Positions 12,189 to 60,651 of a stretch of DNA of 64,000 nt are shown one piece after another. The notes under the pieces are model-generated. The model saw only the letters and a program-made list of their open reading frames with translations, was not told the DNA's origin and searched no databases. The stretch lies in the sequence record OP870147.1; one strand, given 5' to 3'. The DNA is from Escherichia phage vB_Eco_F31. Numbering within the stretch: position 1 is the stretch's first letter; each line of letters starts with the position of its first letter. The position numbers and the translations under genes are program-made.

Positions 12189-12797
12189 TCAGTAACTGAC
12201 AATAGACAGATTCCAGATTGTATAACGTCTATCTTGAATAATAGAATCTACACGCAGTGTAGTCCCTATAGGGAGCATAAATTCACATTCGTCGGATATA
12301 AGTCTAGCATTAGACCGTCTTGTCGCTTCAGGGAAAGCTCCATTGAACTCACAAGATGGCGCAGCCAGAATCATGTTAAGCATATGTTCACGGAAGTTGA
12401 AAGCAAATGGTGCATCTTTGATGCAGAACATATTAAATGTTCCGTAAAAATTATACGAAGCAAAGTTACGTGCTACACCGAACACTGGGCTGAAGCTCAT
12501 TACTCTGTCAAATTTAATAATACTACCAATGCCTTTATCATCAAGTGCGGCCATAGTTTTCTTAGAGATTCCACGATACATTGTCTCAGGAACAGAAGAC
12601 GTCCAATTTCTACGAACGATTGAACTTAACTCCTGTTGAATACAGTCTGGCTTGTTTTCCATACACTGCCAAAGGATGCTTTGTTCATTATCGTTGAATT
12701 GACTATCAATTTCGTACTGCAATACATCTTGATATTCGGGGTTTTGAGCACGACGAACCATTTCTTCAATTTCACACTCGTTATACGGCATAAACAT
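12189..12797 (-). CDS. modA: ADP-ribosyltransferase ModA-like
   Basis: 202 aa; paralogous to the next ORF (shared NILWxC, TSxVP..YRG motifs); order srd-modA-modB as in T4. Confidence 0.6.
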   Translation of the reverse strand: MFMPYNECEIEEMVRRAQNPEYQDVLQYEIDSQFNDNEQSILWQCMENKPDCIQQELSSIVRRNWTSSVPETMYRGISKKTMAALDDKGIGSIIKFDRVMSFSPVFGVARNFASYNFYGTFNMFCIKDAPFAFNFREHMLNMILAAPSCEFNGAFPEATRRSNARLISDECEFMLPIGTTLRVDSIIQDRRYTIWNLSIVSY

Positions 12798-12823: not shown

Positions 12824-12853
12824 GTATAGTATCATCGGAAGAGTTTGTACACT
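12824..12853 (-). promoter_or_regulatory. early promoter upstream of modA
   Basis: Minus strand TGTACA-N17-ACTATA. Confidence 0.4.
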
Positions 12854-13433
12854 AAAAATTCAACATTTTCAAATGAATGATTTTGTATAACCGAGATAAA
12901 GGGTCATATTCTAAGTCTTCAATTTCCACAATCTCAAATCTAGAGATACCTGAGACCATGTACTCTTGTTCAGATTCAATCATATCTAGGACGTCAACAC
13001 GCTTTTCTTCCATAACATGCTTAGGGTTCTTTCCGGCGAGTACAATGTTAATCATGTTTTGGTAGTAATCAAAAATGAATGGAGCATTCCTGAGACTAAG
13101 AATAGTGTACGTCTGATATTCCCATCTCCCAGAGAATTGACGAGCTGTACTGAAATCAGTTGTGAATGATGTTACTCGTCCAGGAGACCAATGGCATCCA
13201 ACAGAAAGAAGTGAAAGACGTTCTACTTCTTCTGGAGTTACACCACGGTAGAGTTCTACTGGTACTGTAGAAGTCATATGCTTACGAACAAGATGGTCTA
13301 ATTCATAGTGGAAATCCGGGTCTTCCTTAGAATCGGTGCAAGCCCAGAGAATGTTTTGTTCTTGGCGGGTGAATTTGCTATCAATCAGATTTGTTAGGTA
13401 TTCACGTTCTTGAAGTTCAGATTGACATGTCAT
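12852..13433 (-). CDS. modB: ADP-ribosyltransferase ModB-like
   Basis: 193 aa; paralogue of the preceding ORF; GGAGG RBS and early promoter upstream. Confidence 0.6.
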   Translation of the reverse strand: MTCQSELQEREYLTNLIDSKFTRQEQNILWACTDSKEDPDFHYELDHLVRKHMTSTVPVELYRGVTPEEVERLSLLSVGCHWSPGRVTSFTTDFSTARQFSGRWEYQTYTILSLRNAPFIFDYYQNMINIVLAGKNPKHVMEEKRVDVLDMIESEQEYMVSGISRFEIVEIEDLEYDPLSRLYKIIHLKMLNF

Positions 13434-59435: not shown

Positions 59436-59659
59436 TTAGGTTCACCTTCTTTAACGAAATCTGGGTAAGGGTAAAATCCTGAGTAAAACCCTTCACCTTT
59501 ATGATTGCTACAACCTTTGTTCGAACAGTAACACCAATAATCAAAATCACAAGCCATTTCGTCATTGCATAAAGCAAAAACTACAGGCCATTCGCATTTT
59601 TCGCATTTAGCACCTGTAAGAATTTTTGTTTGACTCATAGCCATGTCACCTTTAAGCAA
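59432..59659 (-). CDS. small Cys-rich hypothetical protein
   Basis: 75 aa, multiple Cys pairs (CEKCEW...CYCSNKGC). Confidence 0.4.
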   Translation of the reverse strand: MLKGDMAMSQTKILTGAKCEKCEWPVVFALCNDEMACDFDYWCYCSNKGCSNHKGEGFYSGFYPYPDFVKEGEPK

Positions 59660-59862
59660 TATTCTTCTACATGTTGTTTACGGCCTTTCTTATCAATAAA
59701 GGTATATTCAACGAATGTTCCGATGTAGTCTTTATCTACATCATGTGGACTATTAATTGGACATTTAGTACGACAAATGCGTTCCCATTGACGAATAATT
59801 ACTGCCTTATTCTTTGGATCGTATGGATGTGGATAATGTGTATTCATAATAACGGTTCCCAA
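59635..59862 (-). CDS. small hypothetical protein
   Basis: 75-aa ORF. Confidence 0.4.
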   Translation of the reverse strand: MGTVIMNTHYPHPYDPKNKAVIIRQWERICRTKCPINSPHDVDKDYIGTFVEYTFIDKKGRKQHVEEYCLKVTWL

Positions 59863-60341
59863 TCAACAATCACAATTTCTAGTTTAGTAGAATACGTATC
59901 TAAAATCTCTTCGATGACATCCCAGTTTCCACCACCAATACCTGCACCAATTCTTGGCATATAAATTACAGGCTTTATTATCTTATTCTTTCCGAATTCA
60001 TTTAATTCTATTATACAATTCATTAAAGCAGAGTACTCAAAATTAGGTCCCGGCTCAAACTGTGTATAAAGATTAAAGCAATAAGCTTTATGGGTCTTAA
60101 AATATTTTTCATAAACCGAATAAGTCCCGAGTTTAGACTTGTCTCCGAATTCGGTTTGAAGTTTATCGGCTTCTAAAATTTTTGGATAAGCCTTTGCTAA
60201 TTGGCCTGCTACACCGGCGCCCATTGTATGAAAACAATTACACCCATGAGCAATATTATTACCTTTAGAAAACAGGGCGACAATATCGCCCTTGATATAG
60301 TTTTTAATCACTTGCTGCAAGTCCTCTATTATAAGAGTCAA
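59844..60341 (-). CDS. macro-domain protein (ADP-ribose binding/hydrolase fold)
   Basis: 165 aa; GNNIAHGCNCFHTMGAGVAGQL and IGAGIGGG match macro-domain signature regions. Confidence 0.55.
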   Translation of the reverse strand: MTLIIEDLQQVIKNYIKGDIVALFSKGNNIAHGCNCFHTMGAGVAGQLAKAYPKILEADKLQTEFGDKSKLGTYSVYEKYFKTHKAYCFNLYTQFEPGPNFEYSALMNCIIELNEFGKNKIIKPVIYMPRIGAGIGGGNWDVIEEILDTYSTKLEIVIVDWEPLL

Positions 60342-60651
60342 CTAGACGGTCTACCATAGAATTGCATGCTGCCTTATCTTTAGGTTCCGCCACCGAGCAT
60401 TCTAATATTTGCCATTTTTTATAGTATCTTTTAATTAAGGTAGACGCCTTGAACCTACTAGACGCCCCATCTTTTTCTCCGTCTTTATACGCATATAACA
60501 ATTTTTGTGAAAAATCTACTTTACACTCTTGACTTTTACCACAGTAATCAGACGCCGTTCTGTTTGTATACTCCGTTACATCAGTATATGTAGTATTAGC
60601 AAGAGCGTTAAATGAAACCAAGCTAACTATTAAAGCCAACATTTTGGTCAT
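60304..60651 (-). CDS. small secreted protein
   Basis: 115 aa with signal peptide; several Cys. Confidence 0.45.
   Translation of the reverse strand: MTKMLALIVSLVSFNALANTTYTDVTEYTNRTASDYCGKSQECKVDFSQKLLYAYKDGEKDGASSRFKASTLIKRYYKKWQILECSVAEPKDKAACNSMVDRLVDSYNRGLAASD

Follow-up and report, generated by a model that had tools for sequence, protein, structure and literature searches.

The closest described counterpart of the gene considered here is tk.4 of phage T4. When a saturated T4 transposon library was put on a DarTG2-expressing host (HIDEN-SEQ), tk.4 was the sole significant hit, and a clean deletion of the gene sensitised T4 to DarTG2, upon which it was renamed adfM (bioRxiv 10.1101/2025.11.20.689424, November 2025). 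On plain E. coli K-12 tk.4 is dispensable and it scored only in the presence of DarTG2, while the removal of ADP-ribose from DNA by its product was offered by the same authors as a proposal without biochemistry (bioRxiv 10.1101/2025.11.20.689424). T4 lacking both adfA and adfN had earlier been found to remain resistant to DarTG2, and a further factor had been predicted (PMC11825919). The anti-DarTG2 role is therefore already known genetically, through a single preprint confined to the T4 allele, and our search of the accessible literature gave no biochemical assay for a Tk.4 protein of the T4 type.

Three further macrodomains serve as points of comparison. Gp104 of the chimallivirus PhiKZ is a phage-borne, stand-alone macrodomain countering DarTG2, which shares with Tk.4 both the proposed strategy and the name AdfM; its activity has been shown biochemically, since in vitro it strips an oligonucleotide of the ADP-ribose attached by DarT2 and the N23A substitution reduces this activity, and the protein undergoes import into the phage nucleus (PMC13309987, Cell Rep 2026). 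By analogy, gp104 shows that the strategy of a phage "orphan antitoxin" can work. SCO6735 of Streptomyces coelicolor (PDB 5E3B) is, like BT1257 of Bacteroides (2AFC/2FG1), a stand-alone ALC1-like macrodomain; it is the product of a chromosomal bacterial gene and not of a phage counter-defence gene, and it efficiently cleaves the thymidine-ADP-ribose made by DarT (PMC9411070). Yeast Poa1p (PDB 6LFQ-6LFU), finally, is an ADP-ribose-1''-phosphate phosphatase, which acts on a small molecule arising in tRNA splicing.

Identity and Extent of the Gene

The window, a stretch of 64,000 nucleotides from Escherichia phage vB_Eco_F31 (OP870147.1), contains on its minus strand an open reading frame that a sequence-only reading had placed at 59844-60341 and taken for a macrodomain protein. 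Over 2.7 kb the region shares 99.6% identity with Escherichia phage NBG1 (Mosigvirus, Tevenvirinae), the gene is annotated as Tk.4 in relatives, and its product matches PHROG 335 with an E value of 2.7e-66. Against T4 Tk.4 (ORF 60.5 of X04567) the protein aligns without a gap over 155/155 residues, with 85% identity and 95% similarity, and the gene order regB-vs.1-vs-tk.4-tk.3-...-tk is common to the window and T4. The reading frame is the syntenic Mosigvirus ortholog of T4 tk.4, now adfM (anti-DarT factor Macrodomain).

The two proteins share their length (155 aa), their start position, their vs-tk.4-tk.3 neighbourhood and all family-invariant residues. They differ by 23 internal substitutions and by the start codon, GTG here and ATG in T4; position 127, within the phosphate-binding loop, is G in the window protein and K in T4 Tk.4. 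At the level of the genes, nucleotide identity is 81% and dS is 1.3, and the dN/dS of 0.067 between them indicates strong purifying selection on tk.4. The family is also large, as tblastn found tk.4-type macrodomains in 2,798 phage records, including phages of Pseudomonas, Vibrio, Acinetobacter and Aeromonas as well as Escherichia and Salmonella phages of about 85-89 kb such as wV8. The names given in homologous records vary among "phosphatase", "RNase III inhibitor", "O-acetyl-ADP-ribose deacetylase" and "macro domain protein".

The gene and its immediate surroundings comprise the following features:

60304..60651, minus strand: vs (valyl-tRNA synthetase modifier), the upstream neighbour, after the annotation of relatives (PHROG 1256, E 3.3e-35)
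60323..60326, minus strand: Shine-Dalgarno-like GAGG, 11 nt upstream of the GTG start, read from the sequence
60312..60341, minus strand: 5' extension of the longer reading frame, 10 codons with a TTG start, within the 3' end of vs
59844..60311, minus strand: tk.4 / adfM coding sequence, 155 aa, GTG start and TGA stop, a stand-alone macrodomain of the ALC1/TARG1 class
59635..59847, minus strand: tk.3, the downstream neighbour, with coordinates as annotated in relatives (PHROG 2008, E 1.1e-41)

With regard to the start, the ATG of the homologous T4 gene aligns with the GTG at position 60311, and the homologs in the databases, 150-157 aa long, begin with MI at their N-terminus. Because both the T4 start and the database starts match this GTG, a coding sequence of 155 aa at 59844-60311 likely describes the gene better than the longer frame 59844-60341, and the 10 codons following the TTG are probably not translated. 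The T4 record X04567 carries an annotated potential rRNA binding site at the position equivalent to the GAGG of the window. A shorter call was considered as well and rejected: the NBG1 record (MH243438.1) has a hypothetical protein of 126 aa (locus 1045-1425, which corresponds to window positions 59844-60224) starting at the internal Met30. Since such a protein would lose strand beta-1 together with the invariant H22, N25 and C26, this gene model is probably a mis-call.

The trio of vs, tk.4 and tk.3 is tightly packed. The last 8 nt of vs, whose reading frame ends at 60304, overlap the start of tk.4, and the ATG of tk.3 overlaps the TGA of tk.4 as ATGA, an arrangement which suggests translational coupling between tk.4 and tk.3. 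In minimal medium, vs was reported to be the most strongly depleted of the T4 genes (bioRxiv 10.1101/2025.11.20.689424), so that two conditionally important genes, vs and tk.4, may be linked in translation through the overlap of 8 nt.

One further element lies just past the start of tk.4 and the end of vs:

60274..60292, minus strand: GC-rich hairpin of 8 bp (AGGGCGAUAUUGUCGCCCU) followed by a U-rich run, in codons 7-13 of tk.4, a terminator-like site

Its minimum free energy is about -13 kcal/mol, and the NBG1 record annotates a "terminator" at the equivalent position. The hairpin core GGGCGAUAUYGUCGCCC is kept, with one differing loop base, in T4, in SP18 (Gaprivervirus) and in FB (Dhakavirus), despite the synonymous divergence between the window and T4 given above; neither phiR1-RT nor KpV477 has it. 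This element may act as an attenuator or as a 3'-end element of the vs mRNA.

Fold and Class of the Protein

The view that the reading frame encodes a phage macrodomain was borne out by several lines of evidence in addition to its orthology with T4 Tk.4. The Pfam Macro profile (PF01661) matches with 28.4 bits against a cut-off of 22 (E 1.7e-6) over profile positions 2-117/118, and both glycine-rich loops, M-G-A-G and G-A-G-I-G-G-G, are conserved. A single-sequence AlphaFold2 model was unusable (pLDDT 36) and was replaced by a model built from an alignment of 69 sequences, which reached a pLDDT of 95.9 and predicts the three-layer alpha/beta/alpha fold of macrodomains. The best Foldseek matches of this model are TARG1, Poa1p and DarG; its nearest structural neighbours are those of the ALC1/TARG1-like class, clearly apart from macrodomains of the MacroD, viral and PARG types. 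By its model, the protein falls into the ALC1/TARG1/DarG/Poa1p structural class, as a macrodomain that stands alone. A Poa1p-like sequence and structure, including the H-x-C-N-C motif, was likewise found.

In NCBIfam and PADLOC the protein gives weak matches to DarG, and membership in the DarG family was considered and rejected. The DarG equivalog NF048014 is matched with 32.7 bits against a cut-off of 250 and only over model positions 4-146/338; the protein consists of a macrodomain of 155 aa only, it is flanked by vs and tk.3 with no adjacent darT, and both hhalign and MAFFT place its Gln84 opposite the catalytic Lys80. E. coli DarG, in contrast, has 355 aa, lies next to DarT and scores 451 bits with the same profile. 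For reference, the E. coli DarTG2 pair was taken from a plasmid record in which DarG and DarT score 451 and 263 bits, respectively, with their NCBIfam equivalogs.

A Glutamine in Place of the Catalytic Lysine

Fifteen positions (G23, N25, C26, G33, A35, D49, G62, N80, Y82, T83, Q84, P119, I121, G122 and G124) are invariant across the 69 homologs, and H22 is conserved in at least 90% of them. Three motifs are of note:

60234..60248, minus strand: codons of H22-G23-C24-N25-C26; H22 and N25 correspond to H24 and N27 of SCO6735, and N25 also to N22 of DarG and N23 of PhiKZ AdfM
60060..60074, minus strand: codons of N80-L-Y-T-Q84; Q84 corresponds to Lys80 of DarG, Lys84 of TARG1 and Gln85 of SCO6735
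59928..59957, minus strand: codons of the phosphate-binding loop P119-R-I-G-A-G-I-G-G-G128; G122 and G124 correspond to G126 and G128 of SCO6735

Against E. coli DarG2, the family profile is matched by hhalign with a probability of 97.6% and 17% identity; the DarG macrodomains of T. aquaticus (5M31/5M3E) and M. tuberculosis (5M3I), whose sequences were recovered from PDB alignments, have Lys80 where the window protein has Gln84. In the MAFFT and hhalign alignments, N80-L-Y-T-Q84 stands opposite N76-F-P-T-K80 of DarG and the ...I-T-K84 of TARG1, the sequence of which was confirmed against PDB 2LGR. Where DarG and TARG1 have their catalytic lysine, the Tk.4 family thus has the invariant Gln84, and its catalytic centre is not like that of DarG. 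Moreover, the position of Asp125 in TARG1 is occupied by Gly126 in the window protein. Given the absence of the lysine and the glycine in place of this aspartate, the mechanism of DarG cannot simply be carried over to Tk.4.

The profile of SCO6735, by comparison, is matched better than that of DarG2 (probability 98.4%, E 4.9e-15, 23% identity), these being the only two profiles compared. Hhalign pairs IAHGCNC with IAHVCND, NLYTQ with NMIGQ85 and PRIGAGIGGG with PRIGCGLAGG, so that H22, N25, Q84, G122 and G124 stand opposite H24, N27, Q85, G126 and G128; a glutamine at the position of the catalytic lysine is accordingly found together with the equivalents of His24, Asn27, Gly126 and Gly128. In SCO6735 the Q85A mutant is dead, mutation of N27 or of G128 impairs activity and G128E is inactive; Gln85 positions the substrate, and on the basis of simulations the authors propose a backbone-held water as proton donor (PMC9411070). 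Because these invariant residues of the family align with their SCO6735 counterparts, we infer that the chemistry of Tk.4 would be of the SCO6735-like glutamine type rather than the lysine type of DarG and TARG1.

The likeness has its limits. The family is 5 residues shorter after the glutamine and lacks the mobile loop of SCO6735 as well as K34 and K89, whose positions are A32 and about G88 in the window protein; the K34/K89E double mutant of SCO6735 is inactive on a protein substrate (PMC9411070). Conversely, the Tk.4 family has invariants of its own in C26, D49, Y82 and T83. Poa1p, for its part, has a serine at the position of the invariant glutamine.

The sequence of SCO6735 was obtained via its homolog BT1257. 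The placement of BT1257 near NxxxQ was shifted in HMMER and MAFFT by a difference in loop length and was settled by the alignment to the SCO6735 profile. A macrodomain from a Paenarthrobacter plasmid was also tried as a source of SCO6735 and was dropped, as it matched DarG instead.

Two Lineages Named AdfM

The gp104 sequence of PhiKZ, translated from the construct in PMC13309987, is DarG-like, with 35% identity to E. coli DarG2 (E 1e-27) and an FPTK motif that includes the lysine. Its only BLASTP match to the window protein is a local one of 23 residues (E 6e-4), which sets the window protein apart from the PhiKZ type, although Asn23 of gp104, the residue whose mutation lowers activity, aligns with N25 of Tk.4. 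With a DarG-like gp104 carrying FPTK on the one side and a glutamine-type Tk.4 on the other, these are two distinct, non-orthologous macrodomain lineages, to which two groups gave the name AdfM.

Probable Counter-Defence Against DarTG2

Taken together with the published phenotype of T4, it is quite probable that the gene of the window is not merely a tk.4/adfM ortholog but encodes a hydrolytic "orphan antitoxin" against DarTG2. DarT-type defence had been named by the sequence-only reading as a target on which to test the protein, and rightly so, in light of the requirement for the T4 ortholog in resistance to DarTG2 (bioRxiv 10.1101/2025.11.20.689424). In the proposed course of events, the DarT2 toxin of the host would ADP-ribosylate thymidines in single-stranded phage DNA and thereby block replication; the glycine-rich cleft of Tk.4/AdfM would then bind the ADP-ribose moiety, and the protein would hydrolyse the bond between thymine and ribose, so that normal DNA would be restored. 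The phage would in this way carry an antitoxin separated from its toxin. Protection by enzymatic de-ADP-ribosylation of DNA is what we infer. Its range evidently does not extend to CmdTAC, a defence based on an mRNA ADP-ribosyltransferase, as CmdTAC still strongly blocks T4 (PMC11618068).

Protection might instead come mainly from binding and blocking DarT2, or from shielding the modified DNA, without any hydrolysis. The missing canonical lysine of Tk.4 would agree with this, and the phage factors AdfA and AdfB do work by binding DarT (PMC11825919). Furthermore, the inactive mutants SCO6735 (Q85A), DarG (K80A) and TARG1 (K84A) inhibit DarT in vitro, that of SCO6735 most strongly (PMC9411070), and by analogy with these catalytically dead proteins the protection by Tk.4 could be in part non-enzymatic. 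As the main explanation, however, a purely non-enzymatic block seems unlikely: with its 155 aa against 355, and with a match confined to the first part of the DarG model, Tk.4 is without the C-terminal DarT-binding domain of DarG, and its invariant residues make up the ADP-ribose cleft and the equivalent of the SCO6735 catalytic centre, just as selection on catalysis would have it.

A second alternative would regard the protein as a hydrolase of small ADP-ribose derivatives, whether a Poa1p-like phosphatase, an O-acetyl-ADP-ribose deacetylase or an enzyme degrading the signal of Thoeris, with the DarTG2 phenotype as a secondary effect. Such an activity is implied by the database names "phosphatase", "O-acetyl-ADP-ribose deacetylase" and "RNase III inhibitor", it was favoured for phage macrodomains in general by a comparative survey (PMC9503650), and Poa1p is by sequence a nearer PDB match than DarG. 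Yet the names are transferred annotations and not tests, the sole experimental phenotype of an ortholog is sensitivity to DarTG2, no phage phenotype points to an activity like that of Poa1p, and the family profile fits the glutamine-type centre of SCO6735, a DNA-ADP-ribose hydrolase, better than DarG2. We consider this alternative quite improbable.

The remaining alternative concerns the ADP-ribosyltransferases of the phage itself. Enzymes of the ModA/ModB family had been noted in the same window, and two such reading frames are indeed present:

12189-12797, minus strand: Mod-family ADP-ribosyltransferase, 202 aa (PHROG 832 "RNA polymerase ADP-ribosylase", E about 1e-38)
12852-13433, minus strand: Mod-family ADP-ribosyltransferase, 193 aa (PHROG 832, E about 1e-38)

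The two are adjacent paralogues, and the labels modA and modB are applied inconsistently to their homologs across public records. Alt, ModA and ModB attach ADP-ribose to arginine, a linkage removed by enzymes of the ARH/DraG type and not by macrodomains, and Arg-ADP-ribose is not known as a macrodomain substrate. The link drawn between the macrodomain and ModA/ModB found no support: the genes lie about 47 kb apart and share no operon, and the phage records with Mod homologs number 1,078, the listed organisms being enterobacterial phages, so that the macrodomain family, with its records across many other phage groups, is far more widespread. Although two Mod genes do share the genome with the macrodomain, and although TARG1 and SCO6735 of the ALC1/TARG1 class can de-modify proteins (PMC9411070), the distance between the genes, their differing distributions, the linkage chemistry and the dispensability of tk.4 on K-12 make it very improbable that the protein erases ADP-ribose written on host or phage proteins by ModA/ModB or Alt.

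Bacterial Relatives and Origin

Among 185,579 species genomes scanned for bacterial relatives of the gene, 80 loci at 35-45% identity were collected. No DarT was found beside these 80 relatives by tblastn with two DarT proteins, a search of limited sensitivity for divergent DarTs, which returned a single marginal match (E 0.04). When up to 3 neighbours on each side were clustered at the 60 loci with a placeable macrodomain ORF, no conserved partner was found either; the recurring neighbours are housekeeping genes, e.g., rpoC and rpsL in genomes of the Roseobacter group. Most of the relatives at these 60 loci are stand-alone genes for proteins of about 150 aa, often in housekeeping contexts. 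They would thus appear not to belong to toxin-antitoxin pairs, to the extent that divergent DarTs do not escape tblastn, and the lack of a DarT or of any conserved neighbour at these loci argues against a recent capture of the T4-type gene from a DarTG operon.

At a few of the bacterial loci, the Tk.4-like gene was seen by eye near reading frames resembling a Nudix/NrtR-type regulator and a ribose-phosphate pyrophosphokinase, which hints that the bacterial genes are tied to the salvage of NAD or ADP-ribose rather than to toxin-antitoxin systems.

As a side observation, a complete DarT2-DarG2 pair lies at 845-2565 of E. coli CP061270.1 (labelled as plasmid pSTEC1012_1, 1.2 Mb), between the type I restriction-modification genes hsdS and hsdR. 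The system against which Tk.4 would act is here arranged as part of a defence island.

As to origin, it is possible, though we put it forward tentatively, that the T-even phages and the nucleus-forming jumbo phages reached the same counter-defence independently, PhiKZ through the capture of a DarG-like macrodomain of the lysine type and the T4-type phages from the glutamine branch of SCO6735, BT1257 and Poa1p. The bacterial genes of the glutamine-type branch have housekeeping surroundings rather than a DarT neighbour.

Implications

As the result for T4 has already been published, the gene of the window represents another ortholog and not a discovery. Of the two AdfM lineages, enzyme activity has been demonstrated for that of PhiKZ only, and the labels "phosphatase", "RNase III inhibitor" and "DarG" are best avoided for T4-type genes. 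With DarTG systems, phages are halted through the ADP-ribosylation of their DNA, and Tk.4/AdfM would be the answer of the T-even phages to the thymidine-modifying branch of these systems. If the independent origin proposed above holds true, the mechanism of the T4-type enzyme would be independent of the lysine, and its substrates may be wider, like those of SCO6735 and TARG1, and include, for example, Asp/Glu-linked ADP-ribose on proteins or N3-uracil ADP-ribose on RNA, a modification described only recently. In that case the T4-type AdfM could counter more than DarTG2.
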